Shown in pieces: positions 1 through 63,515 of a DNA stretch of 64,000 bases (the first letter of the stretch is position 1; every line of letters starts with the position of its first letter). The translations under genes were made by a program, and so were the position numbers. The DNA is from Raillietiella orientalis (taxonomy: Eukaryota): positions 1-64,000 of the forward strand of contig JAYWIR010000101.1 in the NCBI GenBank assembly GCA_036172245.1. The letters run 5' to 3'. The notes below the pieces were generated by a model that had not been told where the DNA came from, made no database searches, and was given only the letters and a program-made list of their open reading frames with translations.

Positions 1-3000
1 GCTTGAAAGTTCGTTTCCGGGGGTCGGTTGTATTGGCGATGCGGCGCCCGCAACACCTGTGGGGTCGCGTTTTCCGTGAAGCCGGCCATTGACGCTGCCG
101 TGAAGGGCGTACGCTTCGATGACGACGGTCGGGTCGGTCAGCTGATTCTCAGCTGGTCCGACTCGATCGAATTGATCGTCACGAACGTGTACGCCTCAAG
201 CGGGAATGGGGGATACAGCGACCGTACCAGGTTGCTGGAAACCCTGAAGCGCGACTGGCTGGCCGATACGAACGTGCGGAAGGCACACCTGATAGCTGGG
301 GACTTTAATCTCCGTCTGCTGTCAGGTGAGCCCGAAGCACAAGAACGCACGGCCAACGAGTTGTGCGCTGCCATGCGCACGCGCAACTTGTTGGCGGACG
401 CGGAGGGAATGGACCGCAGCATCGACCACTTCTTCCTGGATGTCGAACTGTGCTCGCGGGTCGGCAAACGGGGAGAAGTTGCGTCGACGCTGTCGGACCA
501 TTCCAGGTTAATCGCCGAGGTATGCCCGCGCGATAAAGGACCCCCGGCCAAGGCGTGGCGGTTGCCTGGGGACTGGACGCGGCTCTCAGGAGCGAAGGAA
601 CACCTTCGCGAATTCCTGAGAGGCGTCACCCTCCGCAGTCTCAAAGATTGGGACCTTTTCAAGGCCTCGGTCCGCGAGTTCTGCGAGGAGTTCCCCCTGC
701 ACCGCCTGCCCCCCGGATTTGGGGAGGGGGTTTGGAACCATAGGGCCTATTTACAGGCCCGCCGGCACGAGAGAACCCCCAATGTCCGTCGCCTGGCCGA
801 ATATCGAGCCGGGGCCGAGCGCCAAGCCTGGCAATCCGGGTCGGCCAGCTTGCTGGACGACCAGGGCCGGGAGCGATCGGCCCCACCCGCGATCAGGCAC
901 CTCGTGCGGCAGTATTATTCCTCCCTCTACGCTAGGGTACCCCCAGAGCGGGACGCCTCGCGGCTCCTGCTTCCGGACGGAGGCCAGGCAATAGGGGAGG
1001 AGGAGAGGATCAGCCTCGACGAGCCTTTTTCTACCGGTGAAATTCTCGCCGGTATTAAAAGGCTTAAGAGGCGTAAGGCGCAAGGGGAGGACGGACTGCC
1101 TGCGGAATTTTTTCAATGCTTCGCGACAGAGCTGGCCCCCCTGGTGCTCCAGTTGACCGGGCTGATCCGAGACGAAGGCGACGTTCCTGCCTCGTTTCGG
1201 TCAGCCCGTGTGAGGCTCCTCCCGAAGGGAGGAGACCTGAGATCCCTAGGCAACTGGCGTCCGATCACAATTGTGAATACGGACGCCAAGCTGATCGCTG
1301 GACTGTGGGCTTCGCGTCTAGGACAGGTGGCAGACTCCATAATTAGCCCGGAGCAGACATACGCTGTTACCGGGCGAAGTATGGATGCCAACCTGTTCTT
1401 CGCGAGCACATGGTTCCATGTGCAGAGCTGCCTGAATGAAACTGGCGGAAAGATTGGCAACCCCACTTTGGGGCCGCCAGCTGGGCTGGGAATGGACACC
1501 CGGGCTGGGAAAGGGGCCCTAGCGATCGCGGTCGATCTCCATAAGGCGTTCGACTGCGTTGACCAGGAGCTACTGTTGGCGCTCCTGGGTCGCATGGGCT
1601 TCCCACCCTCCCTTCTCTCCTTCCTGCGCTCCTGCTGGCGCAACGCCATAATTAACATCTGCTTTTCCAGTCAACAGGTGTACGGCGTGCCGGTGCGGCG
1701 GGGCATACGGCAGGGCGATAGCCTCAGTCCCCTGCTCTTTAGCACCTACTTTGAGTTGGTGCTGAGAGCGTACAGGGTGACTTTGGCTGCCCTGCCCAGC
1801 TCGTGCCCCGGCACGCCCGCCGTAGCAGCATACGCGGACGACCTTCTGCTCATGTTGCCCATGTCCGCCCCGGCAGCCGCAGTCGAGGATTTCTTCGACC
1901 TGCTAAGTCGTGGGACTGGACTGCGTGTAAACAAGGCGAAGTCGTCGGTCGTACCGGTGGGTGCGACGTGGGTCGGACGGCCTGACTGGATCCGCTTGGG
2001 GATCATCACGGCCAGGTACCTGAAGTACCTGGGTGTCCCGTTGGAGGACTTCTGCCTCGCAGAAGCCTGGTCAGGTCGTCTCCAGAAGGTAGAGTTGGCA
2101 ATCGGACCGTTCCTGGAAGGCAAGTTCCTTCTGCCGGAACGGGCCGCGGTGTGGAGCGCCTTCGCGGCTCCCATCCTCCGCCCCCTGCTTTTTGTGTGCC
2201 CCGTCCCCCGTGACATTAAAAAGAGGACAAAAGACCTACTCCGCATCGCCCTCTGGGACAGCGGGAGGCCACGTGTGCCTCTGGATGATTTATGCACTCC
2301 TCGTCGGGACGGCGGTCTCGGCCTCCTGCCGCTGGAGCGCCTGAAAATACAGCTGCGATGGCGCACCCTCGCCATCGCAGCAAAGACATGCAGCACCCCT
2401 TGGTGCGCTCCGGCCCGAATCCTCGCCAGCCGTGTGTCCAGGACGCAAGGACTCGCGTCGTACCTTCTGTGCTCCGGCAGGAAGGTGAGAAGATGCGGCC
2501 TTCTTCTTGGGCGCATGGAAGCCCTGGTCAGAGACAACGGCTGGACGGTATGCAGCCCCGCCAACTCCTCCGCCTGGCTGGAGGAAACAGTTGCGACGTG
2601 GGCCAAGCTGAACCTCCAGACTTCCCCGGACTGGAACCGCCTGCGATTCGGCCCCAACGCCCGCTGCACACTGCGGACTACTCTGGAGTGTCCCGCCAGG
2701 AGCACGTGGGCGGAGACCACCCCTCTAGCTTCGACCCTGCCCTTCCTCCGGAGGGCTTTAACCAGCGGCCGCAAGCCAAAGTGGCAAGTCTCCTGCCGAA
2801 TCGCAGGCAAGGAGAAGAAGATGAGCGGTTGGACCATGGGAGAACTGGCGGATGCCACAACCCCGAGTGCTCTCCCTCGTGGACTCCGTAGATGGGGCGA
2901 GGTGCTCGGCATCCCGACGGATGACCTGAAGTGGCCCCCAATATTAATCGGATCCAGACTTCTCCCCCTTAAGTGGCAAGAGTCGGCGATGCTGCTGTTG

Positions 3001-3659
3001 CACTGGGGCCTAACCTGCAACGCGCGCCGCTTCCACTGAACGCGGGGAAGTGTAAGGCCTGAGTGTGCCAGGTGTGGGGACCGGGAATTGCTCCCCCACC
3101 TACTTGTTGACTGTGCTGCCCTCCGACCCCTGTGGGAACGGTTCGGGACGACCCTCGGGCTTAATACGGGCAGCGCGCCCAGAGACGTTCTTCGGCCCCT
3201 CTTCGTGCGGGACGCCTTGCAGCCCGCCGCAGCCCTCGCAGTCCTCTGCTGCATCCGGGGCATCGTGGCGGCCTGGAGCGACATTCGCGACGAAGGAGTG
3301 GATGCCAACGCAAGGGATGTCATCCCGTATACGGTCTGCTTCATGCGGAGAGCTGCGAGATGGCCCCATCTGGGAAGCATGAAGATGGACCTGGAGGGCA
3401 TCCTGCGAAGGATGGGCCCTCCTCCCAGTGGATTGTGATCCCTTCCTCTCCCTCCAAACTCTTTTTTTTTTTTTGTTTTCCTTATGTTTATTTTTCTTTT
3501 TGTTTTGATCCCTATCCCCCTCCACTGCCGAGGAGCGTCACGCCGGGCTGCGTCCCGGCGTCCCGGCAGATCCGGTGTTGTGTGGCCGTTAGTGGAACCT
3601 CGTACCACGTTTTTGCAGAGTTTTTTTCAATAAACGCCCAGGCGTACCCGGGTGACAAC
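1..3659 (+). mobile_element. El1: Tx1/L1-clade non-LTR retrotransposon (5' part outside window), ORF2 + 3' UTR
   Basis: APE motifs (NVYA, GDFN, IDH, SDH); RT motifs (GEDGLPAEFF, NWRPITIVN, KAFD, QGDSLSP, YADD, YLG); C-terminal C..C/H..C; T-rich 3' UTR; AATAAA at 3629; ends GGTGACAAC at 3659. Confidence 0.93.
28..3438 (+). pseudogene. ORF2 (APE-RT-Zn finger) of El1 with one premature stop
   Basis: ORFs 28..3039 and 3088..3438 are in frame. The TGA at 3037-3039 replaces the Trp of the HWTRG motif seen in paralogues. Confidence 0.9.
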
Positions 3660-4303
3660 CCCAAATCCCGCAGGTAGGCGATGCAGGGGGAACTGGAAGC
3701 AGAACTCCTGGACCGACCGCTTGAAGCGGTCCCAGTCCTGAAGTGTCTGCATCCTGAAGCTACGAATAAACGCGCGGAGGTGCTCCGCCGCGTCAAGAAA
3801 CTTCAGCCAGTCCCCTGGCAGACACCACGCTGACGAGGTGGGGCCCTTGTCGCGCGAACGCACTTCGAACATGATCCGACCATGGTCCGACAGCTCGGAT
3901 GGTACCTTGCCGCGCCTGCCCACCCGAGAGCATAGGTGCTGATCAAGGTACACGTGATCGATGCTGCTTTCCATGGCCGTGTCCCCGGCCAACAAGTTGC
4001 GCGTGTTCATTTCTGCGCACAACTCGTTGACGCGGTCGTTCAGTGTATCCGGCGCACCTGAAAGCAGGCGTAGGTTGAAATCACCTGCGATCAGGTGCGC
4101 TTTGCGAACTCCTGCATCGGTCAGCCAATCGCGTCTCAGGGCAAAGTAGAACTTCCTTCTTGCCTTCGCCCTCAACGCGGCGTTTCCGCTAGGAGCGTAT
4201 AGGTTGGTGACGACCAGGTCGATAGAGTCGGACCAGCTGAGAGTCAGCTGACCGACGCGACCTGCGTCAACGAACCGAACGTCCTTTATTGCGGTCTCGA
4301 TGG
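3660..4303 (-). mobile_element. X1: APE-domain fragment of a related element; host of the El1 3' end
   Basis: ORF 3627..4382(-) contains VGQLTLSWSDSIDLVVTNLYAP...GDFN...IDH...SDH...WDRFK. Confidence 0.85.
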
Positions 4304-4964
4304 CGGTGGGAAGGCAAACAAAAAGCAAGGGGCGGAGGATGGAGGCCGCTAAGGCGTTCCAAACCGCGTCCCGTTCCGGCAAGTGAAACTTTCCTTTCAG
4401 GAACGGGCCGATCGCCGTCTCGCCTTTTTGGAGGCAGCTGGACCACGCTTCCGCAGGGAACTAGTTACCCAACGGCACACCAAGGTACTTGAAGCACCTC
4501 GCCGTGGAAATCCCCAGTCCTGCTGCCCTGCCCACGCTGCACCTATTGGCACCAAAGACGACTTTGCCCTCTTAACCTGCAGTCCGGTCCCGCGGCTGAG
4601 CAGATCGGAAAAGTCACCCTGTACGCTCTTGCCGGGGTGGACATTGGCAACAAGAGCAGCAGATCGTCGGCGTACGCTGCTACGGCGAGCGTGCCGGGGC
4701 ACGAGCTCGGCAATGAAGCCAAAGTCCCCCTGTACGCTCTCAGCACCAACTCAAAGTAGGTGCTGAAGAGCAGGGGGCTGAGGCTATCTCCCTGCCTTAT
4801 GCCCCGCCACACCGGCACGCCATACACCTTGTGACCGCTGAAAGAGACGGTAATCATCGCATTCCGCCACCAAGAGCGCAGGTAGGAAATCAAAGAGGTT
4901 GGGAAGCCCAGGCGACCCAGAAGCTTCAAGAGGAGTTCCTGGTCTACACAGTCGAACGCCTTGC
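4304..4964 (-). mobile_element. X2: RT-domain fragment (KAFD to LLFVC); host of the A 5' end
   Basis: KAFDCVDQ...QGDSLSP...YADD on the minus strand; very similar to 17060-17720(+), including a shared frameshift. Confidence 0.85.
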
Positions 4965-5059: not shown

Positions 5060-6709
5060 ATGCCTGACGCGACCACCAGGGATGGCCAGGGGGCAGCGGC
5101 AACGCCGTCCCCAGAGGCGATGGAGAGCCAGGGGGCGGCGGCAACGTCGCCCATAGAGGCGATGGAGGTGGGGGCATCCGCCCCCACAGAATCAATCCCC
5201 GCCTCAGCGCGGGCGTAAAGCGCCGTTGTGTCGGCGCCATCGCCTGCACCCGCGGCGGAATTGTCGGCCTATGTAGAAGAGGGGTACAACCCCTCATTGT
5301 TCTACAAGGTAGGCAATGTATATTCTTTAGAGAGCGCGCGCGCCTTCTCGAAAGGCATGCGCGCTCTCGATGTGAAAGAGGAGGAGCTCAGCGCTATGAC
5401 CATCCGCAGCGGGGGTCAGTACGTTGAGGTCATTTGCAATCATGCAGAGCTGGCCCAACGACTGCTTAGAACCCCCGTTGTGATGGGGACGCGCAGGCTC
5501 CTCCCCACTACGGCGGACCGCATAATGGTGGTCCACCTGTTAGGCGTAATTGCGCGAATGCGCAAAGAACAGGTTCGCGCCGCTTTGGAACAGTTCGGAA
5601 CGGTCCACGCGCAGTAAACGAAAGTAAGTCCTTTCGAGGACTACACGGGGCTGCAACACGGCCTCAGTGCTGCGCGCGTGACCGTTCGGGAGGGCTGCAC
5701 TCTTCCCCACAAACTGGTGGTCGAAGGCGAAACTGTCGACCTCTGGTATGTGGGAAAACCGAAATACTGTGGCTTCTGCAATACGTCGGGCCACCTCAAA
5801 AAGAGGTGTCCCAACGTGCAGTGCCAAGTATGCGGAACCATGGGACACACGAGAGAGGTGTGCCCTAAAGCGGCAGTGCGGGTGGTTTCCAAGAGAAACC
5901 TTAAAAAACGTGCCCGGCATCTGAAGAAAAGGCTGGCGGCGAAAGCTGCCGCGAAGGGTGTGCCACCCGCGCCCAAGGCCCAGGCCGCACCCGAGACCCC
6001 GGCGAACAATGCCGAACAAATCGAGGGAAGAAGCCAGGAGCCTGGGTGGCAGGTGGCTACGGCCAAAAAATCAAAGAAGGAGAGGAGGATGGAGAAAAAG
6101 CTCGCGTATCGCCAGAAAAAACAGCAGGCAAGCGAGCAAATTAAAGAATGCAGCGTTGTCGTCGGGCGTATTCCCGACCGCTGCGAAAAAGAACTCGCCA
6201 CAACCGACGACCACCCCTCTGTTGACTCTGTCAACAGCGAGGGGAGCGAGCCGGCGGCGGCGTCCGTCATCGACACCACCATCGATGACGTAGCCTTCGC
6301 GCGAGCCGCGGAGGAGCTGGCAGCCTCGTTGCAGCCAGAACCCTCCAAGGCTGGCAAGAAGGCCGTAAGGCGCCCGGCCTCCCCTCAGGAGTTCCCCACT
6401 TCCGACCCTGAGGTGGAGGCCGGAATTGCAGCCTCCGTTTCCACGGCACCGCGCAAGAAGGCTGGACGTAAGTCCACAAAGCCAAGGAAGCTCGTCTCCC
6501 CCGTCGAAGAAGAAGAGATGGCTTCCGCAAGCGAGGGTGCCATGAGCGTGGGAAACTCTCGGGACCCGTCGCCCGAGAGACTCCCACGCGCGGACACGGA
6601 GGGGATGGAGGGAATGGAGGCCGAACAGGTGCCTCAGGTGCCTGAGAAGGCCGAAACCCCCATGGACATCCCGCCCGCCTCGCAAGAGGCGGGCTCCCCC
6701 ACACCTTAA
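5060..6709 (+). pseudogene. ORF1 (gag-like, two CCHC knuckles) of A with two premature stops
   Basis: Contains YVGKPKYCGFCNTSGHLKKRC and CQVCGTMGHTREVC. TAA at 5216 and 5615 correspond to Trp in the intact paralogue 44894..46714(-). Confidence 0.88.
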
Positions 6710-8185: not shown

Positions 8186-8398
8186 TTGCCACCCGGTAAC
8201 GCCGGGGAGTTTATTGAAAAATTCTCCATAATTGTGGTAGAAGGCCCCACTACGGCCAAGACAACTGATCCTGCCGGGTTGCCGATACGCAGATCGGCGG
8301 GACTCACCTCGGCAGCGGAAGGGGGTGGGGGGAAAAACAAAAAGAAAAATAAAACATAAAAAAAAAAAACAAAAAGATTTTGGTGGGCGGGGAAGGGA

Positions 8399-11785: not shown

Positions 11786-14455
11786 GCCAGGTGAGGATGG
11801 TCTGCCTGCGGAGTTCTTCCAGTGCTTCGCGGCGGAACTCATCCCCCTGGTGCTGAGGCTTTCTGCGCTGATGCGAGAGACGGGCAATGTCCCGGCCTCG
11901 TTTCGCTCAGCAAGGGTGCGTCTGTTGCCGAAAGGCGGAGACATGCGCCATTTAAGCAACTGGCGTCCCATCACTTTGGTGAATGCGGACGTCAAGTTGT
12001 TCTCCAGGCTGTGGGTCGCGCGCCTGGGCAGGATCGCTGGATCCGTCGTAAGTCCGGAGCAGTCTTACGCTGTTCCCGGGCGGTCCATGGAGGCGAACCT
12101 GTTCTTCGCGCGCACGTGGCTCGAGCTGCAACGCTGCGTGGCGCACGACAGCCAGGCAACCGCATCTGCGGCTGCCGAGGCTAGGCGTCGCTGCATTCGG
12201 CCCGGGGAATCGCCGGGTGCCTTGGCGGTCGCGGTCGATCTCCGCAAGGCGTTCGATTGCGTAAATCAGGATCTCCTGCTGGAGCTCCTGGAACGCATCG
12301 GTCTCCCGGTGCACCTCGTGGCGTATTTGCGCGCTTGCTGGCGCCACGCGCTCATTTCCATCTCTTTTAGCGGCTGCCACGTGTACGGCGTGCCGGTGCG
12401 GCGGGGCATCAGGTAGGGCGACAGCTTAAGCCCGTTGCTCTTCAGCATCTTCTTTGAGTTGGTGCTGAGGGCGTACAGGCTGACGCTGGCCAACCTACCG
12501 AGCTCTTGTCCAGCAACGCCGTCCGTGGCGGCCTATGCTGACGACCTGCTTCTCCTCTTACCCATGACCACCCCGGCGTCCAGTCTCGAGGATTTCTTCG
12601 AGCTGATTCCCCGAAGAGCGGCCATGAGCGTAAACCGGAGCAAGAGCGTGGTCGTACCTATTGGTGCGGCGTGGGAGGGGCAGTCCGACTGGATCCGCCT
12701 GGGGATCCCGACCGCTTCCTCCATGCATTATCTGGGCGTTCCGCTGGGGAACATCAGCCCAGTGGAAGTGTGGTCGGACTGCCTTCGGAAGGCTTCGAAT
12801 GCCCTGAGCCCGTTCCAGCATGGGAGGTTCGTCCTGCCGGAGCGGGCCACGATATGGAACACCTTCGTTGCCCCTCTCTTGCGCCCCCTGCTTTTTGTTT
12901 GCCCGTCCCCCTACTCGGCCAAGCTCCAGGCGCACAGCCTGTTGAGGAACGCTCTGTGGGGACCTGCGAGGTCCAGGATCCGCCTCAAAGACTTGGCGGC
13001 TCCGCGTCGGGATGCTGGCTTAGGCATCCTGACGCTGGAGAGAATCGAGCTGCAGGTGCAGCTTCGGATGTTGGCCCTGTGCGCCAACCTTTGGTCCACT
13101 CCGTGGTGCGCTCCCGCGCGCCTGCTTCTGCGGCGCTGCACAGGCAGCGATGGACTTCTGTCGCTACGGCCGCACACGGAGCGCGCCACGAGAAGCTTCG
13201 GTTTCCCCTTGAAACCGCTGTACGGGCTCCTGGAAGCCCAGGAATGGATCTCCTGCCGCCCAACGAACTTTGAAGCCTGGCGGCAGGAACCGTTGCATGG
13301 CTGGGCAAAGCACCAGGACGTTTCCCTCCTGGAACTCCGTTGCGCTCACCACTCCCCGTACTGCACGGTGGATGAGGTGTGCAACAGTCAGGAGAAGTGG
13401 ACCCGCCTGGCCGTCACCCCCCTCGCCGACGCACTGTCAGCCCTCAGGGCAAGAGATGACAGTTGCGAACTGGCGAGATGGGAGGTCGCCTGCACCATCG
13501 CAAGAACAACGCGACCTATTGGCGGCTGGAAGACTTGCGAGCTGAAGGACGCCGCCACACCTCGCCACGTTCCGAAGGGTGTCCTCCGGTGGAGCGAACA
13601 CTTGAGTGTGCCCCTTGAAGAACTTGTGGTTCCTCCCTCGTGTTTGAACACTTCTGTGTTCCCCCTTTCGTGGAAGCAGGACGTGATTATGCTGGTGCAT
13701 TGGGGTTTTCACTCCAACCAGCGCACGAACCTTGTTTCCGGGGGAGTTGTCTCCCCAAACTGCAAGCAATGCGGGGAAGTGGAAACGCTCCCGCACCTGC
13801 TGCTTGAGTGCGGTGCCCTTCTAGGACTGTGGCGAAGGCTGGCCTCAGCTCTCCTGCACCAGGGGGACACCGCGAGGGTCTTGATGCGCCGCTTCTTCAC
13901 GCCAGGCGGCCTGTCATTGGGTGCTGTCGTTGCAACCGTGTGTTGCACCCGCGCCATCGACAAGGCCCACCGAGAGTTGGAGAAGCTGGCCATTTTTCGT
14001 CAGCCCACCGGATTAGCCAGCGCAAACATGTCGTCGGCTGCCCAGTGGGCCCATCTGCCACAGGGCGTAAGAAGAGAGATCGCCGGCATCCATCGCCGGT
14101 TTTGAAAGGAAGGAACGGACTAACCAAAGACCCCTGTCCCCTGCCCTCCATATTTTTCTTTTATTTTTTTATATAGTAGTGTGTTTGTGGTCCCTTCCCT
14201 CCCGTTCCGGACTTTCGGCATACCGACCTGCGTGTCGGGGATCCCACCCCCTTCGTCTCTTGTTCTCCCCTTTGTCCGGGAACCCTGTTCCCGGATAGTT
14301 TATAATAAATGCCCCGGCGCACCCGGGTGGGACTTTCGGCATACCGACCTGCGTGTCGGGGATCCCACCCCCTTCGTCTCTTGTTCTCCCCTTTGTCCGG
14401 GAACCCTGTTCCCGGATAGTTTATAATAAATGCCCCGGCGCACCCGGGTGACAAC
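11786..14455 (+). mobile_element. Element C, 5'-truncated, antisense within the APE of B
   Basis: Starts at PGEDGLPAEFF; ORF2 runs to 14105 with a premature TAG at 12414-12416; ends AATAAATGCCCCGGCGCACCCGGGTGACAAC. The host reading GGRL|...GTRYTCG is split around it. Confidence 0.92.
14209..14450 (+). repeat. Perfect 121-bp tandem duplication of the 3' terminus of C
   Basis: 14209-14329 and 14330-14450 are identical by reading. Confidence 0.92.
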
Positions 14456-16801: not shown

Positions 16802-19159
16802 ACGCCAAGTTGATAGCAGGGCTATAGGCTTCGCGACTGGGGCAGGTGGCGGAATCCGTAATTAGCCCGGAGCAGACTTATGCTGTTCCCGGGCGAAGTA
16901 TGGATGCTAACCTCTTCTTCGCAAGCACATGGGTGCACCTGCAGAGAAGAGAGAAGAAAGGGATAGGGAAAGTCAGCAACCCCACATTAGGGCCGCCAGC
17001 TAGGCTAAGAAGGGACCCCCGGGCGGTGAAGGAGACCCAAGCACTCGCAGTCGATCTCCACAAGGCGTTCGACTGTGTAGACCAGGAACTACTCTTGGAG
17101 CTCCTGTGTCGCATGGGCTTCCCACCCTCACTGATTTCCTACCTGCGCTCTTCCTGGCGGAATGCGATGATTACCGTCTCTTTCAGCGGTCACAAGGTGT
17201 ATGGCGTGCCGGTGCGGCGGGGCATAAGGCAGGGAGATAGCCTGAGTCTCCTGCTCTTCATTACCTACTTTGAGTTGGTGCTGAGAGCGTACAGGGTGAC
17301 TTTGGCCCCCTTGCCGAGCTCGTGCCCCGGCACGACCGCTGTAGCAGCGTACGCCGACGATCTTCTGCTCTTGTTGCCAATGTCCACCCCGGAAAGAGCG
17401 TACAGGGTGACTTTTCCGATCTGCTCAGCCGCGGGACCGGACTGCAGGTTAAGAGGGCAAAGTCGTCTTTGGTGCCAATAGGTGCAGCGTGGGCAGGGCA
17501 GCAGGACTGGGGATTTCCACGGCGAGGTGCTTCAAGTACCTTGGTGTGCCGTCGGGGGAATACTTCCCTGCGGAAGCGTGGTCCAGCTGCCTCCAAAAAG
17601 TCGAGACGGCGATCGGCCCGTTCCTGGAAGGAAAGTTTCACTTGCCGGAACGGGACGCGGTTTTGAACGCCTTAGCGGCCTCCATCCTCCGCCCCTTGCT
17701 TTTTGTTTGCCTTCCCACCGTGGAATGAAAGAAAAGGACAAAGGACCTCCTGTGTATCGCTTTTTGGGGCAAGAGGAGTCCCCTAGTTCCTCTGAAGGAC
17801 TTGTGCGCTCCGCGTCGGGACGGCGGTCTTGGCCTCCTGACGCTGGAGTGCGTGGAAAAGCAGCTGCGGTGGCGAACCCTCGCTATCGCAGCGAAGATGT
17901 GGAGCACCCCTTGGTGAACTCCGGCCCGCCTCCTGGCCAGCCATGTGTGCCGGTGCGATGGACTCGCGTCTTTTCTTATGAGCCGTGGCCGGTAGATGCG
18001 AAGATGCGGCCTACTGCTCGATCGCATGGCAACATTGGCCAAGGAGAACAGCTGGATGGTTTGCTGCCCCGCCAACTCCCCCGCCTGGCTGGAGGAGAAT
18101 ATTGGAACGAGGGCATTGGTTAACCAGAAGAGCCACGAAACGTGGAATCGTCTCCGATGCAGCCCCTATGCCCGCTGCAGGCTGCGCCATCTCCTGGAGA
18201 ATCCAGCAAGATGCCCGTGGGCAGAGACGACCTCCCTAGCTACGGCGCTGCCCTTCCTGAGGAGGGCACTTCACAGCAGCCGGACGCCAAGGTGCCAAGT
18301 CTCCTGCTGCATCGAGGGACGGGAGAAGTTGATTAGCGGATGGACAACAGGAGAACTGGCCGACGCCACGACCCCGAGCGTCCAGCCTCGAGGATTAGCA
18401 AGATGGGTCGAGCTGCTCGCAATCCCCAGGGATGAGCTGAAGTGGCCCCCGGTGATGAAAGAATACAGGATCCTTCCCCTCAAGTGGCAAGTGTCGGCGT
18501 TGCTCCTGTTGCACTGGGGTCTACCCTGCAACGCGCGCCTCTTCCACTGGACGAGGGGAGTGGTAGATCCTGCGTGTGCCAGGTGCGGGGAGCGGGATTC
18601 GCTACCCCACCTTATTGTGGATTGTGCTGCCCTTCGACCACTGTGGGAACGGTTCGGGACGACCCTCGGGCTTAATACGGGCAGCACCCTTAGAGACGTT
18701 CTTCGGCCCTTCTTCGTGAAGGACGCACTGCAGCCAGCCGCAGCCATCGCAGCCTTGTGCTGCGTCCGTGGCATCGTGGCGGCATGAAGCGACGCCAACA
18801 ACGAAGAAGTGGGTCCACACGCGAGGTATGTCATCCCATAGGCCCAACGCTTCTTGCGGAGAGCTGCCGGATGGCGCCAACTTGGGAATATGCAGACAAA
18901 CTTGGAGGGCTTCCTTCGACGGATGGGCCCTCCTCACAGCGACCAGTGTTGCCTTCCCTGCCCTCTAACTTCTTTTTGTTTGTTTCTTTTTTATTTTTCT
19001 TTTTGTATTTCTCCCCTCATCCCCTTTCGCTGTCGGGGAGTGCCACGCCGGGCTGCGTCCCGGTGTCCCGACAGGTCCTGTGTTAACGGCCGTGGTGGAG
19101 CCTCGTGCCAAGCATGTAGAATTTACAAATAAACGCCCCGGGCGTACGCGGGTGATAAC
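16802..19159 (+). mobile_element. Element A, 3' part (RT, Zn finger, 3' UTR), frameshifted
   Basis: Resumes at the TSD with AKLIAGL; KAFD, YADD, CARCGERDSLPH; AATAAA at 19128; ends GGTGATAAC. Confidence 0.9.
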
Positions 19160-26363: not shown

Positions 26364-28671
26364 TTTTCACCCGCATATGCCGGGGCATTTATTATTCTAA
26401 TTTGTTACAAAGATTAGATAATAAAGTCTTTCAAAAGTTGGTTGTGGGAAACACCGGGTTCTCCCACCTTGCGCGACGTGTCGGTTGCAGGTGCATAGAC
26501 CGGTTAGGTCGATTCCCAAGGCGCATGGGAAGGGAAAACTAGAACAAAAACAAACAAGAAGATAGATAACGGGGAGGGAAACAGTTATATGGGGAGAGGG
26601 GAGGGGGCAGGAAAGGGATCACTGGGCGCCTGGGTCGGTCCTCCGCATCCTGTTGAGGATGCAGTCAAGTTCGATTTTTATTGTGAAAGGTAGACGCCAC
26701 CTTGTCGCCGTCTCTAAAGAGATCGTCTTCCAGTGGCTGGCGTCCCTGCATCTTGGGCCTCTTCTTCTAGCGTGCCACCTTTGCACAATGCCGCGCACGC
26801 AGCAGAGGACTGCTAAAGACGCAGCGGGGCGCAGGCCGTCACGCAGAAAGAGGCGACGGTAAATTTCCTTAGGGTCGCCTACTGGAAGATGAAGGATTGG
26901 AGCGATTCGACTCCAGAGTTCATCCAGGGCGACACACTCGAGGGTGAGATGCGGGAAGGTTTCTCTTTCTCCGCACTCGACACAGCGGGCATCCACATTC
27001 CCCAGTGTCCAGTAAGACAGGCGTGCTCTGCTTAACAGTCTCCAGTGCAGAAATAGCAACGCCGTCTCCTGCCACTTCAACGGAAGTGTGCCGCAATCCC
27101 AACACGCTGGGGGCCACTTCACCTCCTCCGGAGGTATTGCGAGCAGCTCTCACCAGCGCGCAAGTCCGTGAGGCGGGACGCTCAGGGTGGCAGCTTCCGT
27201 GAGCTCCCGAGTCGTCCACGCCTTTAAAGGTTTTCTCCTGCCTCGGATGAGGCAGGACACTTCCCACGATGCCCGCTCGTTGCTGCTCTAAGGGTTTTTT
27301 AGGGAGGACAGAACGGGGGCAAGGGGGCTGAAAGAAGCCCACAGAAACTTCCGGGGCGTGTTGATAATCTCCTGCAGCGGCTGTCGAGCGTACGGTCCTC
27401 GTCGTAGGCAGTTGTATTCCGCCTCGCTCGTGCCGTTGATCTTAGCCCACGCGGAAGCTGACTTTTGAAGCCAGGCAGTGCAGTTCGCGGGGAGGCGGGA
27501 GATCCAGGTATTTTCCCTCATCATGGCGACCATCTGGCGCAAATCGGGGCCACAGTTGAAGAGGCTGCGCTGGTAGGTCACGAGGATCGAGGACAATCCT
27601 TCGCAGTTGGTCGCTCTTCTGGCGAGGAGCCGTGCCGGATCGCACCATGGCGTCATCCATAAGCTAGCCGCAAGGGCTAACTTCCGAAGTGTTGTCTGTA
27701 GTTGGATGCGCTCCAACGTAAGGAGGCCCAAGCCACCATCCCTGCGTGGAGCGCACAAGTCTTTCAATCGGACTCGCGACCTCGCTGTGCCCCAAAGGGC
27801 AGTCCTCAAGAGGGCTTTGGTCCGTCTCTGTATGATGGGAGGGGCGGGGCAAACAAAAAGGAAGGGGCGAAAGAGGGGGGCCGCGAACGCGTTCCACACC
27901 GCGGCCCGCTCCTGCAAGTAAAACTTGCCGTTCCGAAACGGGCCGATCGCCAACTCCACCTTTTGGAGACGGTCGGACCAGGCTTCTGCAACGCAGAAGT
28001 CCCCCAACGGAATGCCAAGGTACTTGAAGCACCTTCCCGTGGGGATCCCTGAGCGGATCCAGTCCGGCCGTCCGGCCCACGCCGTATTGTTTAAAAGTAG
28101 TGGTGATGTTGGAGCGATGGAAGATTTCTCTCTGTTCACCTCGAGGCCCGTCCCGCGGCGCAGCAACTCAAAGAAATCTTCGAGCGCCGACGCCGGGGTG
28201 GACCCGGGGAGCAGGAGCAGAAGGTCGTCGTCGTAGGCCGACACGGCAGGCGTGCCGGGACACGAGCTTGGCAGGGTTGCCAGAGTCTCCCTGTATGCCC
28301 TCAGCACCAGCTCGAAGTAGATGCTGAAGAGCAAGGGGCTCAGACTGTCACCCTGCCTTATGCCACGGCGAACCGGCACGCCGTACACGTGCCGGCCGCT
28401 AAAAGAGATGTTTATTAGAGCGAAGCGCCAGCAGGAGCGCAGGTAAGCCCGGAAGACGGCCGGGAATCCCAAGCGTTCCAGGAGCTCCAGAAGGAGTTCC
28501 TGGTCGACGCAATCGAACGCGTTACGCAGATCGACTGCGACCGCAAGGGCACCGGGGGAGGCTCTTCCATCAAAAGCGTCCCCTTCCTGGTCAGAGGAGA
28601 ATCCAGGATTCTCTTGACCTCCCTGGTCTTCTATTTTTTGCAACTGCCACCATGTACTGGCGAGGAACAGG
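26364..28671 (-). mobile_element. Element H, 5'-truncated, antisense within G
   Basis: RT/Zn finger ORFs 27288..28706(-) and 26619..27122(-); 3' end AATAAATGCCCCGGCATATGCGGGTGAAAA; degenerate 20-bp TSD at 26344-26363 / 28672-28691 (16/20 matches). Confidence 0.88.
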
Positions 28672-31600
28672 TGCTTGGCTGCAGCCCAAGTACACCGCGT
28701 AGTCAAGCGCTACTACTCCTCGTTGTACGCGGAGGAGCCTACGCAACGCAGTCTCTCCGAGCTGCTTCTTCCGACGGGCAACTCTGCTATCGACGAGGAG
28801 GAACGCGCCAGATTGGATTGGCCCTTCACGGCGGAAGAAGTATCTTCCGCCATAGCGGGCCTGAAGAGGCGTAAGGCGCCTGGGGAGGATGGCCTGCCCG
28901 CGGAGTTCTTTCAGTGCTTCGCGGCGAAGCTCGTCCCCCTGGTGCTAAGCCTTTCCTCGCTGATGCATTTTGAACCCGGTTGCGCCGGGACGTTTATTTG
29001 TAAAAACAAACCACAACCTTCAAGGCAAATTCATTCTTTAGAGACACAAGAAACGCCCATACAGTAAGTTCAGTTCAGAAAGATCAACGGCACGTAGGTT
29101 GCCTTCCAAATGAAAGGAACGGAGGGAGAGGGATACAAAATAAACAAAACATAACAGAACAAACAAAAAAAAACAGTGGAGGGTGGGGTCAGGGATCTTT
29201 GGTAGTAAACGTTCCTAATCTTTCTAGAAGCGCTGTTTGACAATGGCGACTTCCCTGGAGACTTTTCTGGGCAGATGAAGCCACCTGACAGCTTCTTTTA
29301 TAAGGTTCCCAGCGATTCTGGCGGCGTCCGTTCTCTGCGAGCTTCCTTCTAGTTTATGGCGGGCAATCAAGATGGCGCGGATGCAAGAGATTGTTGCGAT
29401 AACAGCGCCTTTATACAGTCCGTCTTTGCTGAAGAAGCGTCAAAGCAGGTCTGTGGCAGTGTCCTGAGGACGACGAAGTGCCGAAGCAAGTCTCCGCCAT
29501 AACTCCCGCAAGTCACTACACTCAAGGAGCAGGTGCGTAAGCGATTCTATCGCCCCGCACCTGAAGCAGTTCGGGGAGACGACTCCCCCTGTAACCAAGT
29601 TACTGCGCTTATTGCACTGGAATCCCCAATGCAGAAAAAGAAGAACATCCTGTTTCCATCGAAGCGGGAACACGGAGCTGTCCATACACAAGGAAGGGAC
29701 CACGAGATCTTCGGGGAGTAATCCAAGAACCTCACTCCAACGAAGAAGTCTCTTTGCCAGGTAACGAGGAGTGGCAGCGTTTACCAACACGTTCGTTCTG
29801 CAGCCACTCAGCAGTCTTCCCACTCCTGCAATGATGCAGAAGAACTCCCACCTTGCCGGCTGGCTACTGTCGTTGTTTGCTCTGAGAGCAGACAGCGCTG
29901 CGGCGATGGGTGAGACGACTATCCGGGACCAAAGCGACCACTCCTCCAGGATCACTCCTAGCGGTTTGCGTAAGAGACCCTGTAAGGGTCGCAGTAGCTC
30001 TGGGCGCACATCCAAAGTGGACGTCCATTGCTCCAGAGCTTCCTGCTGCCAAGCATTCCAATTGGAGGGGCGGCAGGAAATCCAGGAATGGGCTAACAGC
30101 AACGAGGACAAGTGCCTCAGTGGGTAGCCGAATCCAGTTCTCCGGCGAAGGTTGCGCGGCAGCAACGAAAGCAATCCTGCACTGCCGACACATCGCTGGA
30201 GAATATGACGAGCCGGAGCACACCAATGACTAGACCAAAATTTCCCACATAGGGATAGAAGCCGGAACTGCACTTGCAGTCCAATCTTCTGGATGGTCAG
30301 GATGCCCAGGCCTGCGTCCTGGCATGACGCCACCAAATCTTTGAGGCGAACCCTGGATCGCGCAGCGCCCCATAAGACGTTACGTAGGAGACGCTGCGCC
30401 CGGAGTTTAACCACATAGGGAGGCGGGCAAACAAAAAATAAGGGGCGGAGGAGGGGGGCAAGGAAAGTGTTCCATATGCACGCCCTTTCCGGCCAGACAA
30501 ACTTGCCTTCCAGGAACGGGCCTAGAGCCATCTCTGCCTTCTGAAGACAGGCCGACCACGATTCAGACGAGCAGAAGTCGCCCAACGTTACGCCAAGGTA
30601 CTTGAAGTACCTGACCGTGGGGATCCTCAGGCGGATCCATTCGGCCTGTCCCTCTCACGACGCACCTACCGGCACGACGGAGCACTTCGCCCTGTTAACG
30701 CTCATGCCCGCTCCACGACGGATCAGCTCGAAGAAGTCTTGGACCGAGTCCGGCGGAGTAGACATGGGCAACAGAAGCAGAAGTTCGTCGGCGTATGCTC
30801 CCGCGGACGGAGTGCACGGAGAGGCGCTGGGCAGGACAGCCAGCGTCAGCCTGTACGCTTTTAGCACCAACTCAAAGTGAATGCTGAAGAGCAACGGGCT
30901 TAAGCTGTCGCCCTGTCTGATGCCTCTGCGCACGGCCACTCCGCACACGCAAGAGCCACTGAAACAGAAGTTGATAATCGCGTGGCGCCAGCAGGAGCGC
31001 AAGTACAGGAAAAGATAATTCGGAAGCCCAAAACGCTCCAGGAGCTCCAAGAGGAGTTCCAGGTTTACGCAGTCGAATGCTTTGTGCAAATCTACTGCTA
31101 GTGCCAAGGCTCCCGGCCTTTCTCCCCTCCGTCCGTACTGGCGCACGTAGTCGGCAGAAGGTCTTGCCGCTGTTCGGCTATCCGCCGCAAAGCGCTCTTG
31201 AAACTGCCACCACGTGCGCGCGAAAAGAAGCTTCGCATCCATGGATCTAACCGGTACAGCGTAAGACTGCTCCGGGCTTACCACGGACTCCGCGACTTTC
31301 CCTAAGCGCGTGACCCACAGCTTCGAAAACAACTTGACGTTTGTATTTACTAATGTGATCAAATGCCAGTTGTTGAGTTGGCGCAGATCCCCTCCTTTCG
31401 GAAGGAGACGCACCCTCGCTGAGCGAAAGGAAGAAGGGACATCGCCCGTCACCCTCATCAGCGTCGAAATTCTAAGAACCAGTGGGGCGAGTTCCGCCGC
31501 GAAGCTCTGATAGAACTTCCGCGGGCAGTCCGTCCTCACCTGGCATCTTCTGTCTCTTGAGTCCTGCGATGGCGGAAGAAACTTCCTCCAACGTGAAGGG

Positions 31601-35534: not shown

Positions 35535-35547
35535 GTCTTCCCCTTTT

Positions 35548-41081: not shown

Positions 41082-44000
41082 GTTTCACCCGGAATTCGCA
41101 GGGGCGTTTATTGTAAAATAAACTTTTACAAAGACGTGAGGTGGCTGGACCATTGCTCAGGCCACGCACGATGAAACACAGAGCCTGCCGGGTCACCGGT
41201 TCGCAGACCGGTACGGTCCACCACGGCAGCAGGGGGATGGGGGAAAAACAAAAAACAAAACAAAAAAGAAAAGAAAAGTTGGGAGGGTAAGGGATGGGAT
41301 CACAGTTGCTGGTGGGGCCGTTGCATCCTTTGCAGGATGCCGGCAAGCTCCTTCTGTATTCCTGGATCCAGGTGAGGCCATCGGGACGCCCTCCTCAGGA
41401 ACTGGGAGGCTGGCTGGATGGCACCCTGGTCGCGTTGTCCTCCCGTAGCCTTCCTCCAAGCGGTGACGATCCCGCGTAGGCAGCACAAAGCTGCTAACGA
41501 GGCCGCTGGCCTAAGGGCGTCGGCAACGAAGAGGGCTTTCAGTGCGTCCCTGGGGATGCCGCAGGAAATTCCGATGGCCTAGGCAAAGCGAAACCAAAGG
41601 GGCCGAAGGGCAACACAATCCACTAGCAGGTGGGGTAGGGGCTCCCGTTCCCCACACCTGACGCAATTGGGGACCGCCGCTCCCCAGGTCCAGTGGTGTC
41701 GGCGGGAGTTGAAGGGGAGTCCCCAGTACTGCAACAGGAGAGCCGAATCCTGCCATTTTAAGGGGAGGGCGGAAGTGTTCATGAGCACCGGGGTCCACTT
41801 CAGATGTTGAATGGGAACATCGAGAAGCGCGCCCCAGCGCAGAAGTCCATTGCGAGGCGTACTCGGAGACGCAGCGTCTGTTAACTGGCCCATCTTTTAC
41901 TTTCCTATCTTCTTTTCCTTTCCGGAGATTGTAACTCAAACCTCTCACTTCGCCGCAACATTGCTGTCCAGATCTTTCATCAGGAAGGGCAGCGAGGCAG
42001 CGAGGGAGTTTTTTCCTGCCCACGCTCTCTTCTTTGGATCCTCCAGGATCTCGCGGAGCGTGCAACTTCTGTAACGTCCAAAAAGAAACCTTTGTTCCTG
42101 TTGGGAGCGTTGCATGCCGAACTGTCCCCACGTTCGAACGGTTTCCTGCAACCAGGCACTACCGTTCAAAGGGCGACAGGTAAGCAATCCTGGGTTTTTC
42201 CGGTACAGCGCAGCCACCCTCCGTATCTGGAGTCCGCATCGGTTGACGCAGCGACGGAGTGCAAGAAACGACGTCAGACCGGTCTTACCAATGGCTTGCT
42301 GGAGAATGAGACGTGCAGAGACGCACCAACAAGTACACCACAACTCTGGAACAAGTGCCGCCAATCGGAACTGGGGCTAAAGCTCCAGCCGCTCCAGCGT
42401 CAGGAGGCCCAGACCACCGTCCCGACGAGGTGCGCACAAGTCTTTTAAGCGAACTCGGGCCCTCCCGTTGCCCCAAAGGGCGATACGGAGGAGGTCCTTT
42501 GTCCGCTTTGTGATCCTCTCTGTGGAAGGCAAACAAAAAGCAGGGGGCGTAGGAGAGGAGCCGCGAACGTGTTTTAAACCTCGGCCCGTTCAGGCAGGAA
42601 AAACCTGCCGCCTCGGAACGGGCGGATCGCCGTCTCTACTTTTTGGAGGCAGCCGGACCACGCTTCCGCAGGGGAGTAGTCCCCCAACGGCACACCAATG
42701 TACTTGAAGTACCTCACCGTGGGGATCCCCAAACGGACTCAGTCCTGCTGCCCTGCCCACGCCGCACCAACTGGCATCACGGACGACTTCGCCCTGTTCA
42801 CCGTAAGCCCGGTTCCTTGATGCAGCAGGTCGAAGAACTCCTCGACCGCCGCAGCCGGGGTGGACATAGGGAGCAGCAGCAGAAGGTCGTCCGCGTATGC
42901 TGAAACGGCCGGCGTGCCGGCACAGTCGTGCGGCAGGTGCGCCAGAGTTCCCCTGTACGCTCTCAGTACCAACTCAAAGTAGGTACTGAAGAGCAAGGGG
43001 CTCAGTCTGTCTCCCTGCCGGATCCCACGCCGCATTTGCACGTTGTGCACTGTCTGCCCGCTGAAAGAAACGTTGATGAGCGCGTCGCGCCAGCAGGAGC
43101 GCAGATAGGCCACTAATGAGGCCAAGAAGCCCAAGCGTTCCAGAAGGTTTAGAAGGAGATTCCGGTCGACGCAATCGAATGCTTTGCGCAAGTCGACTGC
43201 GACCGTAAGGGCTCCCTCTATCACCCGACCATCCGACCCCTTGCCGGCGCACGCACCGGAATTCCGGCTGCGCACCAAGCTATTTTCATGTTGGAGCTCT
43301 AGCCAGGTGGAAGCGTGGAACAGGTTCGCCTCCATGCTTCGCCCGGGAACAGCATATGTCTGTTCCGGGCTGATGAAGATGTTGGCAACCCGTCCCAGAC
43401 GCTCTGCCCACATCTTGGCTATCAACTTGGCGTCCGCATTCACTATTGTGATGGGACGCCAGTTGTTCATGCTCCTCAGATCTCCTCCCTTAGGGAGGAG
43501 CCGCACCTTTGCCGAACGAAACAAGGCGGGAACGTCACATGTTTCGCGTATCAGCAAGGTGAGTTGCTGTACCAGGGGGGTAAGCTCAGCCGCGAAAGTT
43601 TGATAAAACTCCGCGGGCAGGCCGTCCTCCCCTGGAGCCTTCCGCCTCTTTATCTTTCCGATGGCCGAGAGGATGTCGTCCATCGTGAAAGGCTCGTCGA
43701 GGGTCTTTCTCTGCTCCTCCCCGATCGCTGGTGCGCCTTTCGGAAGCAGGAGTCGTGAGACGTTTCTCTCCGGAGATGCCCTGGCATACAGAGAGGAGTA
43801 GTAACTCCGCAGCAGGCCGCGGATATGGGCAGGTGCCGAGTGCTCCTGGCCCTGATCGTCCAGTAAGCTGGCCGATCCGGACTGCCAGGCTTGCCTCTCG
43901 GCTCCCGCTTTGTATTCCGCCAGCCTGCGGATGTCGGGGGTCCTGGCGTAACGACGGGCCTGCAGGTAGGCTCGTTCGTTACGGACCCCGCTCCCAAAAC

Positions 44001-46638: not shown

Positions 46639-48645
46639 GCAAGGCGTTCGATTGCGTAAACCAGAAGCTGCTTTTGGAGCTTATGGAACGCCTTGGGTTC
46701 CCGGCGCACCTCATCGCCTACTTGCGCTCCTGCTGGCGCCACACGTTATGCTGTAACTCTTTCAGCGGGCGCCACGTGTACGGCATTCCCATACATCGGG
46801 GTATCAGGCAGGGAGACAGCTTAAGCCCCCTGCTCTTCAGCATCTTCTTTGAGTTGGTGCTGAGGGCGTACAGGCTGACGCTGACCAACCTGTCGAGCTT
46901 CTGCCCGGGAACAGCGGCCGTGGCCGCCTATGCTGACGACCTTCTCCTGCTGCTGCCCATGTTTACTTCGGCGTCCAGGCTCGAGGACTACTTCGAGCTC
47001 ATTCGTCGGGGAGCGGGCCTGAGCGTCAACAGGACGAAATCAACCGTTGTATCGGTTGGCTCTACGTTGGAGGGGCAGTCCGACTGGATCCTCCTGGGGA
47101 TCCCCACGGGCAGGTGCTTGAAGTATATCGGCGTTCCCTTGGGCGCCTTCTGTCCAGCAGAAGCGTGGTCGGACTGCCTTCACAAGGCCGAGACTGCTCT
47201 GGGCCCGTTCCAAGGCGGCAGGTTTCTCCTGTCGGAACGGGCCTTCGTGTGGAACATTTTCGTTGCCCCTCTCCTCCGTCCCCTCTTTTTTGTTTGTCCC
47301 CCTTTCTACTCGGCTAAGCGTCGGGCGCAACGCCTGTTGCGGAACGCCCTGTTGGGACCGGCGATGTCCAGGATACGTCTGAATTACTTGGCTGCTCCTC
47401 GGCGGGATGCTGGCTTAGACATCCTGACGCTAGAGAGCATCGAGCTGCTGGTGCAGTTTCGGATGTAAGCCCCGTGCGCCAACCTGTGGTTCACTCCGTG
47501 GTGCGCTCCTGCGCGCGTGCTTCTGCGGCGCTGCACAGGCAGCGATGGACTTCTGTCGCTGCGGCCGCACACGGAGCGCGCCACTAGAAGCTTCGGTTTC
47601 CCCTTGAAGCCGCTCTACCGGCTCCTGGAAGCCCAGGAATGAATTTCCTTCCGCCCATTGAACTTTCCAGCCTGGCGGCAGGAACCGTTGCATGGCTAGG
47701 CAAAGCACCAGGATGTTTCCCTCTTGGAACTTCGTTGCGTTCACCATTCTTCGTACTGCACGGTGGATGAGGTCTGCAGCAGCCAGGAGAAGTGGACCCG
47801 CCTGGCCCTCACTCCCCTCGCGGAGCAGACAGACGCCGCCACGCCTCGTCTCAAAGAAACTTCTTCAATGGAGTGAACACTTGAGTGTGCCCCCCGAAGA
47901 ACTTGTGGTCCTCCCTCCTGTTTGAACACTTCTGTGTTCCCTTTTTCGTGGTAGCAGGACGTCATCATGCTGGTTCATGGGTTTTTACTCCAACCGGCGG
48001 ATGAACCTTGTTTCCGGGGAGTTATCTCCCCAAACTGCAAGCAATGCGGGGAAGTAGAAACGCTTCCGCACCTGCTCCTGTACTGCGGTGCCCTTCTACT
48101 GCTTTGGCGGAGGCTGGCCTCAGCTCTCGTGCACCAAGGGGACACCGCGTGGAACTTGATGCGCCTATTCTTTACGCGATGCGGCCTGTATTTGGGTGCT
48201 GTCGCTGGAGCTGTGTGTTGCACCCGCGCCATCGACAAGGCCCACCGAGTGTTGAGGAAGCTGGCCATCCTTAGTCAGACCACCGGATTAGCCAGCACAA
48301 GCATGTCGTCGGCTGCCGAGTGGGCCCATCTGCCACAGGACGTAAGGAAAAATATCAGCGGCATCCATCGCCGGTTTTCAAAGGATAAAACGGACTCACC
48401 AAAGACCCCTGTTTCCTGGATACCATATTTTTATTTTTCATTTTTCATAGTACTGTATTTGTGGTCCCCTCGCTCTTGTTTCGGACTTTCGCCATACCGA
48501 CCTGCGTGTCGGGAATGCCACCCCCTCCGTATCTTTTTTTCCCCTTTGTCCAGGAACTCTGTTCCCGGATAGTTTTCAATAAACGCCCCGGCGCACCCGG
48601 GTGATAAATAGCCGCCCTGCGGAAATCCGTTCGATCTCTTGCGCT

Positions 48646-62073: not shown

Positions 62074-63515
62074 TTTGTTACCCGGTCACGGCGGGACGTT
62101 TCTTGTTATAAACTAGCTGCAAACAGTTGTTTCCAACCAACGACTACAAAAACCAACAAGGGAGATCCCCCACTGGCACGCAGACCAGGAAAACGGAAGG
62201 GACTAGGAAAGAACATAGAAGAAAAACAAAAAAAACAAATAGGAGGAATGGGCCAAGGAACTTTGGTAATGCTCCGTATTCACCGGAAAAAATAAAAAGT
62301 AAAAGCATCAAAGGCACTAAGGAGAAAATGGGAAGTGGGGAGCCAGAACAAAAATAAAGTGAACAGGGGAATGCAGGAAGATGACCGGGTTCGTCGTTCC
62401 AAACCGTGTATCATACGGCGATAAATGCCAGTAAGCTCCTCCGTTGCATTTTCGTCCAGGTGTCGCCACCCAGCTGCTGCTCTGACGAAGTCGGCTGCCT
62501 TCCTGGCGACACAGCATCGCTCAACAGTATTGTCCAGCACGTCTCGGACCGTGACGATGACGCGGATGCAACCAACTGTAGAAATCATTGGAGCCGTCGA
62601 AAGTCCGTGGGCTTGGAAGAAACTTCGCACCACTTCTCGGGCGGTGACCCTCGGTAGCAGGAGTGCTGCTTCCAACTTCCGCCAGGGTTCCTGGAGGGCA
62701 CTACAGTCCAAAACAAGGTGCACAAAAGACTCCGTCGCACCGCACCGGCCACAGAAGGGTGAAGCCACCCCACCGAATACTCGGTGGCGCCGCTTGTTGT
62801 AGCGCAAGCCCCAGTGCAACAAGAGAAAGACGCCTTGCTTCCATGCAAGGGGAAACTTCGAGCCGTCGAAACAGCAGGAAGGGATTAGAAGTTCCTCCGG
62901 GGAAACACCAAAAGTTCTTCCCACCAAAGTAACCCATTTGGTGTAGCACGAGGAGTGGCGGCATCCGCAAGCTCGCTCGTGGCCCATTGGCCAAGTGGTT
63001 TCGTTATTCCTGCAATGGTGCAGGGGAACTCCCACCTTGACGGAAAGCTACTGTCTTCTCGAAACTCGAGGGAACACAATGCTCCGGCAAGGACGTATCG
63101 GCCAGGGAGGAAAACTTCACATCGTCATGCATCACATCTTGAAGTGACCAAGGTTGAAAGTGACGCAGGGAGGGAAGATTTTCTAGGCTCATTCCTAAGG
63201 ATGCAGCCAAGCAATCAATGGATTATTGCCGCCAAGCATTGTAGTTCATTGGGCGGCAGGAAATCCATGTATTTGCTTCCAACATGGTGGTGAGCTCCCT
63301 CAAAGGATACCCAAATCCCTGTCTCCTGTGAAGCATGTCTGTCACCAGGGAAAGAAGTCCTTCGCTGCCGGCACACCTCCGTAGCAGGATGCGCGCGGGC
63401 GCACACAGGAGGGAAGTCTATAGCTCGGCACACAGTGCCAGGATCCGAAACTGCACTTGCAGTCCGATCCGCTTTATCGTCAGGATGCCAAGACCGACAT
63501 CGCGGCATGCGATGA
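62074..63515 (-). mobile_element. Element M, 3' part of ORF2 + 3' UTR
   Basis: FPLAWKQGVFLLLHWGL...CGRCGATESFVHLVLDC; 3' end AAACGTCCCGCCGTGACCGGGTAACAAAC. Confidence 0.85.

Follow-up and report, generated by a model that had tools for sequence, protein, structure and literature searches.

HP1, an interrupted hairpin with a CUGCGN hexaloop in the 3' tails of a LINE superfamily of Raillietiella orientalis, is supported by sequence comparison as a real structure kept by selection, and appears to be one of three tail hairpins. The original prediction was borne out in part. Its functional RNA hairpin is supported, with selection indicated by the pairing kept on internal branches of a tree and by covariation.

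The window (the whole stretch of DNA analysed, 64,000 nt at the contig start of a 210-Mb assembly) consists mostly of nested LINE pieces on both strands. Its first element, El1, was annotated as follows.

7..3438, + strand: El1 ORF2 (APE endonuclease and reverse transcriptase, L1 type), truncated by the window start
3439..3524, + strand: C/U-rich tract opening the 3' UTR, also in other window tails
3525..3569, + strand: HP1, interrupted hairpin (MFE structure identical to centroid, z -1.6)
3525-3530 with 3564-3569, + strand: HP1 lower stem, near-invariant sequence
3532-3534 with 3561-3563, + strand: HP1 extension
3535-3540, + strand: HP1 6-nt 5' bulge
3541-3547 with 3554-3560, + strand: HP1 upper stem, with covariation
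3548..3553, + strand: HP1 loop, CUGCGU, on 8 contiguous pairs
3592..3608, + strand: HP2, short in El1, longer and of family-specific sequence elsewhere
3629..3634, + strand: AATAAA after a U-rich run, polyadenylation-signal-like (putative role)
3638..3652, + strand: HP3, terminal hairpin or palindrome, family form CCCGG-N5/6-CCGGG, with one substitution in the El1 copy
3653..3658, + strand: El1 3' terminus T-GACAA, no poly(A), followed by target DNA (antisense ORF2 piece of another LINE)

El1 ORF2 contains a premature stop at 3037-3039. ORF2 domains gave Pfam matches to RVT_1 and Exo_endo_phos, and the sister ORF2 at 8618-12064 (- strand) matched human L1 ORF2p in the PDB with E 8e-43 vs. E 3e-13 for R2. 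By its predicted N-terminal APE and reverse transcriptase, nearest to L1 ORF2p, the superfamily is an L1-clade LINE, a call made from domain and PDB similarity. A candidate for a separate ORF1 lies at 5618-6709, where CCHC knuckles can be made out in the translation (Pfam zf-CCHC only E 0.06). L1-type traits present were target-site duplications (TSDs) of variable length and 5' truncation; the poly(A) tail, typical of L1 though not universal, was absent. As to the Tx1 group (L1/Tx1 background in PMC5203782), family-typical downstream flanks recur among loci, which suggests that each family has specific targets within other LINEs. Among the matches looked up, including 10 of the 150 listed, there was no named Tx1 protein. 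The same antisense ORF2 position of another LINE repeatedly lies downstream of El1-type elements (3659-4304 and loci L002-L030).

The superfamily has at least 2,662 tails in the genome (two exact terminal patterns at 424 and 2,238 places, controls 0). Protein searches with ORF2 gave 8 distant matches in one set, and among 150 matches listed two were at 67-75% identity and the remainder at or below 36%. Metagenome contigs gave 0 matches to the tail pattern and one 77-residue, 34% match to ORF2, which had no tail. As no tail-bearing relative was found in these contigs, all comparative evidence lies within a single genome.

Two further structures in the window were recorded. A distant LINE at 33464-39217 (+ strand), with an ORF2 26% identical to that of El1, is headed by a full U4 snRNA (33478-33615, 90.5 bits); the U4 lies within the 16-nt target-site duplication and is therefore part of the insertion. 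The tail of this element (39174-39201, + strand) and an opposite-strand tail end (approximately 50007-50034, - strand) are without HP1, and both finish with an AATAAA-like word, a C-rich/G-rich hairpin and a few A's, with no poly(A). The U4-headed tail thus seems to repeat the outline of the superfamily tail in a distant lineage. At 16376-16636 (+ strand) lies a degenerate 24/48-bp tandem array of about 11 units, at the 5' part of a minus-strand ORF1.

Besides that of El1, the HP1 loops of the window were located at the following positions.

8287..8292, - strand: element B, 6 pairs (tail ends at 8186; 15-nt TSD)
14228..14233, + strand: element C, 5 pairs (second copy at 14349-14354)
19053..19058, + strand: element A, 8 pairs
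26493..26498, - strand: element D26, CTATGC, a family-wide variant
29092..29097, - strand: element E29, CTACGT on a slipped stem (family form CTGCGT)
41201..41206, - strand: element J, CTGCGA, 7 pairs
48502..48507, + strand: element G, 5 pairs
62178..62183, - strand: element M, 5 pairs with T.G closing

Seven hairpins (El1, A, B, C, G, J and M) had been listed beforehand, and each was found with its loop and stem in place; the tails of D26 and E29, which belong to the same superfamily, were missing from that list. The second copy in element C stems from a perfect 121-bp tandem duplication of its tail (14209-14450, + strand), from just 5' of HP1 to HP3. The outer stem is CTGCCG/CGGCAG in El1, B and J and CTGTCG/CGACAG in A, and C, G and M are without it. 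The compensatory pair that had been pointed out in family A is genuine, but it represents one event, with a U.G intermediate.

Chance levels were determined in the window and in fetched loci. Counting both strands, the window contains CTGCG 218 times; 8 of these words are enclosed by a stem of at least 5 pairs, all of them in these tails (one being the tandem duplicate). A set of 123 tails preceded by an ORF2 end was taken from the window and from loci that had been selected on the terminal motif and not on the hairpin. CTGCG was present in 90 (shuffles: mean 17.1, max 26) and stood in a stem of at least 4 pairs in 55 (100 shuffles: mean 0.47, max 2). With up to one mismatch and 4 of 5 pairs, 103/123 tails were scored (shuffles: mean 23.5, max 36). 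A genome search with fixed stem and free loop returned 634 matches (control 0), and CTGCG-H (H = T, A or C) was counted by eye in 66 of the first 100 stem-anchored matches listed.

For analysis of stem covariation, a rough tree was calculated from about 450 nt at the ORF2 end of 187 copies. 41 copies were dropped (duplicates, poor anchoring, or no hexaloop, including the L095 and L118 families), and changes were mapped on the remaining 146. Internal branches represent active lineages and terminal branches mostly decay. Pairing was kept in 19 of 28 changes on internal branches (7 two-sided, 12 one-sided, 9 breaks) and in 50 of 123 on terminal branches (Fisher p 0.012); the two-sided enrichment alone, internal vs. 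terminal, gave p 0.052. When the partner was slid by -1, +1 and +2, the 7 two-sided internal changes fell to 0, 1 and 0, respectively.

50 representatives were then chosen, one per clade, by shortest terminal branch. In these, 84.3% of cells were paired vs. 76.2 +/- 1.1 in shuffles, and 34 cells were two-sided vs. 12.4 in shuffles. The covariation score was 0.420 (shuffles 0.254, with 0/500 reaching the observed score; best slid control 0.230). Two-sided change was found at all 6 pairs of the HP1 upper stem, although the closing pair alone accounts for 21 of the 34 two-sided cells, and the motif used to anchor the alignment itself includes the stem. RNAalifold returned no consensus structure for the same 50 representatives, which are decayed copies. 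Of the 25 anchored family consensuses, no more than 13 gave HP1 a pairing probability of 0.5 or above, and single-sequence z-scores were weak (-1.9 to +0.7 for the sense strand; the El1 antisense strand folds equally well). An all-against-all pair scan of the HP1 region in 82 copies gave only single-event, non-helical coincidences and no long-range covariation outside the stems. The covariation claim nevertheless holds beyond the window, on the tree-mapped two-sided changes and on the score of the 50 representatives: in the larger alignment covariation exceeded both shuffles and slid controls, despite the negative RNAalifold result.

Loop classes were assigned from families with at least 2 copies (27 families, of which 2 were mis-anchored and 25 were used). 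Hexaloops were present in 22/25: CTGCGT in 13, CTGCGC in 3, CTGCGA in 2, and CTGCGG, CAGCGG, CTATGC and CTGTGA in one each, the CTGTGA loop resting on 3 copies and possibly being due to decay. Of the other three families, two (L118/L248) retain the intact stem with a variable 5-nt loop and one has no hairpin. CTATGC is fixed in 23/25 loci of the D26 family. In the E29 family, CTGCGT is found in 17/19 copies printed, on a slipped stem with only 3 of 6 canonical pairs. In the L095 family, an ORF2 clade of its own for which the search listed 344 candidates, the 3' arm of HP1 is absent in 23/23 copies printed; that this lineage spread after loss of HP1 argues that HP1 alone is not always required.

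The description of the loop as near-invariant CTGCGT was therefore too strong: C1 and G5 are constant, position 6 is free and some families have other loops. C1 and G5 were found in 22/22 hexaloop families, and bases 2, 3, 4 and 6 each vary in some family. On internal branches, no change was mapped at positions 1, 2 and 5 and nine at position 6. The constancy of C1 and G5 would fit a pseudo-triloop, with a putative cross-loop pair 1-5 and base 6 bulged. The C1-G5 pair never covaries, and its predicted probability by nearest-neighbour folding is at most 0.19. Two other loop models were rejected. An IRE-like rule that base 6 is never G held in 99/99 non-duplicate rows of the stem-anchored search and was then refuted by families with AGC after AATAAA (G in 6/6 loci). 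A UNCG tetraloop, c(UGCG)g, would suit just the one family whose base 6 is G and is not general.

Downstream of HP1, the tail is more constant across families in HP2 and HP3 than in HP1 itself. HP2 has about 7 or more expected pairs in 25/27 family consensuses, including families with HP1 lost or changed; its arms differ in sequence by family and retain complementarity. AATAAA was found in 162/169 ends (the pattern permitted four variants). HP3 has a pairing probability of at least 0.5 in 25/27 families. On internal branches, each column of its arms changed 0-1 times, compared with 5-10 times for loop columns 2-5, four of the five in the loop. The terminal motif was strict in 202 of 240 ORF2 ends, looser in 35 more and absent in 3; most of these loci had been fetched by the motif, so that the figure is not an independent estimate. 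Two unusual tails were seen in this part. At L101:2860-3000 (+ strand) a very long inverted duplication expands the HP2 region (predicted tail -88.9 kcal/mol). At L145:290-340 (- strand) a minimal insertion comprises some 8 nt together with AATAAA, HP3 and the last 5 nt, with 11-nt duplications and unrelated flanks.

The 3' terminus was defined from TSDs. Elements end 5 nt after CGGGT, i.e. 6 nt past HP3, in NNNAA. For 70 ends with a TSD of at least 11 nt, the duplication started at offset 5 in 35 and at offset 4 in 12, and offset 5 was commonest for both core lengths (19-nt, 6/9; 20-nt, 29/61). The register of the El1 terminus was taken from TSDs of other copies, since the El1 5' end lies outside the window. 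A was found at +4 in 301/312 and at +5 in 295/312 ends, and an A-run of at least 6 in 4/312. In empty sites, AA preceded the duplication in 0/47 cases and a single A in 10/47. The terminal AA is therefore derived from the RNA, and the primer need not pair with it. Copying start is thus fixed, poly(A)-less and independent of the target.

Short copies were inspected for their 5' ends. From 82 rows, 64 were excluded, almost all of which matched the terminal motif only; the 5' ends of the remaining 18 were spread from -125 to +37 around the loop, with no two alike. RT stalling or cleavage at one HP1 site was considered and rejected on this spread, which shows no pile-up. Where fetched loci were looked at for a SINE partner, short copies resembled plain truncations, and none with a shared tail was seen. 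One tRNA gene was present among all fetched loci, at a LINE target site: a tRNA-Arg(CCT) gene adjoins the end of an L118-family element (L233:1752-1825).

The reading we favour, as somewhat better than an even proposition by analogy with stringent LINEs, is that the folded tail serves as a stringent-type cis signal for ORF2p, with HP1 as an accessory contact. HP2 and HP3 are likely the core of this signal. The sense RNA would fold into HP1, HP2, AAUAAA and HP3, followed by U-NNNAA; this model draws on covariation for the HP1 upper stem, on prediction and family-specific complementary arms for HP2, and on prediction only for HP3. The transcript would then be cut and polyadenylated, probably about 24-25 nt after AAUAAA. 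The element's own ORF2p would bind the tail and start copying 6 nt beyond HP3, with at most about two A's and no target pairing. The fixed end and the target-independent AA were observed, and ORF2p is their presumed cause. A start that is fixed with no help from primer pairing implies a protein by which the template is positioned, and nothing but the hairpins is conserved there. HP1 would provide an extra, sequence-specific protein contact via a C-UGC-G pseudo-triloop on a bulged stem, a putative contact; the loop pattern and the loss of the hairpin in one family were observed. Since HP1 is kept in most lineages but altered or dropped in some, it is not assigned to the core.

A wider scenario is offered as speculation that is rather unlikely to hold as a whole. 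In it, this L1 lineage would have abandoned poly(A) priming; ORF2p would measure its start from the terminal hairpin with no pairing to the nicked target, leaving targets free to change per family. The CUGCG pseudo-triloop would be a convergence with HBV epsilon and a code shared across dozens of families, allowing mutual mobilisation in trans, and families with a changed or lost loop would have left this pool.

The main rival to ORF2p as the partner of HP1, with a small chance of being correct, is a host RNA-binding protein or ORF1p, which would bind HP1 in 3'-end formation, stability, export or RNP assembly. The same loop is found across families with ORF2 only about 45-77% identical, as expected for a slowly changing partner, and the hairpins sit just upstream of AATAAA. 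Pseudo-triloops are general protein-binding motifs, e.g. in the IRE, and the HBV loop probably contacts capsid and not polymerase (PMC1636360). Such a partner would, however, leave the fixed, target-independent copying start unexplained, and several successful families have altered or dropped the loop, which fits a changing, element-encoded partner at least equally well.

That the palindromes act as DNA, as a protein-binding site or a 3' antisense promoter, and not as RNA is very unlikely. The complementarity of HP1 and HP2 outlasts sequence change and passes through G.U intermediates, which is unexpected for DNA read by its bases. In favour of DNA, HP3 has unchanging arms on either side of a free 5-6-nt spacer, with no covariation, so that RNA hairpin and DNA palindrome are indistinguishable there, and a dimeric DNA site would give the same pattern. 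A host-bound 3' module in the Dictyostelium element TRE5-A also counts for a DNA role.

Hardly any credence is given to a pseudoknot between the HP1 loop and the bases that follow AATAAA, which would control polyadenylation or place the end. Such pairing of GCGU with ACGC/AUGC had been suggested, and the triplet after AATAAA is indeed mostly YGY and always able to pair with GCG via G-C or G.U. Across 136 tails, no two-sided change was found. The AGC families break the pairing, and the CTATGC family retains just two wobble pairs of it. None of the CTGCGA/CTGCGC families has the U6-A pair, base 6 varying opposite an invariant A. In the family that lost HP1, the YGY triplet is unchanged. Judged from these comparisons, the pseudoknot appears largely refuted. 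Other tertiary ideas were also dropped. An apparent loop/triplet compensation in E29 (CTACGT with ACGT) is copy-specific decay. Three contacts were considered by eye: kissing of the HP1 and HP3 loops, pairing between the HP1 bulge and the stretch that follows the lower stem, and a permuted HDV-like fold. The HP1-region pair scan showed single-event, non-helical coincidences only, and the loop of HP3 is free to vary.

It is similarly improbable that the hairpin is an unselected relic of shared ancestry. The homology of all tails, the loss of the hairpin in one family and the negative RNAalifold result speak for such a relic; against it stand the repeated two-sided changes on internal branches, and the constancy on these branches of loop positions 1, 2 and 5 next to columns that changed 5-10 times.

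Self-cleaving ribozymes occur in other non-LTR elements, and the tail stops sharply, with no poly(A), and contains several helices that are conserved. That the processing structure suggested earlier is a self-cleaving one making the RNA 3' end is nonetheless the least probable reading of all, given that no Rfam family reached gathering score in any tail (the only match in the window was the U4 at 33478-33615), that long-range covarying pairs outside the stems are lacking in the 82 copies scanned, that the 5' ends of the 18 short copies are scattered, and that a conserved AATAAA stands as far from the end as is usual.

HBV epsilon has the outline lower stem, 5' bulge and upper stem. Its loop CUGUGC (solved) and the IRE loop CAGUGC are pseudo-triloops, described in PMC1636360, and resemble HP1 in the hexaloop, the fixed C1 and G5, the free base 6 and the upper stem, CUGCGC and CUGUGC differing by one base. 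HBV epsilon is an unrelated element and the likeness is at most convergence; the AGC families have G at position 6. In the literature covered (Repbase and most subscription journals were outside scope), no description of a CUGCG loop or pseudo-triloop in a LINE was found.

Tail stem-loops of stringent LINEs are already known, including in the L1 clade, and tail-less L1 families have been catalogued. In flowering plants, 224/233 L1s end in poly(A), and tail-less families are given as 9/233 and 5/15 in Table 1 of PMC3472496. The monocot 1a L1-clade LINEs (LINE1-1_ZM; ZmSINE2/3) have a conserved 3'-end hairpin (Ohshima 2012, PMC3472496), which has been read as stringent 3'-end recognition (PMC3472496; PMC3747384). 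They share with the elements described here the L1 clade, a tail hairpin, compensatory stem changes and a conserved loop. They differ in the loop UCU and in having SINE partners, whereas the tails analysed here carry CUGCGN and three hairpins, end without poly(A) and showed no SINE partner in the fetched loci.

In the L2-clade elements ZfL2-1, ZfL2-2 and UnaL2, the EN-RT linker of ORF2p binds the stem generally and the loop specifically, and the stem-loops are described as needed for retrotransposition (PMC4176376). An exchangeable stem and a specific loop are common to both systems. ZfL2/UnaL2 have terminal tandem repeats and a family-specific, essential loop; here the loop is dispensable in at least one family and, unlike in ZfL2, is common to very divergent families and not a family-specific tag. 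In SART1Bm (R1 clade), a target-specific APE LINE, several 3' UTR stem-loops steer the start of copying, and a long poly(A) is needed for an accurate start, while SART1 may base-pair with its target (PMC7265360); in contrast, the present elements have no poly(A), and their empty sites no AA.

Because a covarying tail hairpin is known for stringent LINEs, the hairpin by itself is a modest finding. A fixed poly(A)-less, target-independent start is unusual for an L1-type element and is relevant to the design of site-specific retrotransposon tools. The superfamily further provides a set of natural mutants (the hexaloop, its altered form, a pentaloop of variable sequence, a slipped stem and a lost hairpin, each with its own ORF2), with which the evolution of stringent vs. 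relaxed RNA recognition in the L1 clade, a question raised in PMC3472496 and PMC3747384, becomes testable. Compared with these systems, the tail is most likely a signal of a known kind that is laid out unusually; this analysis adds loop variants at the level of families, hairpin loss in one lineage, the pseudoknot test and the end register.
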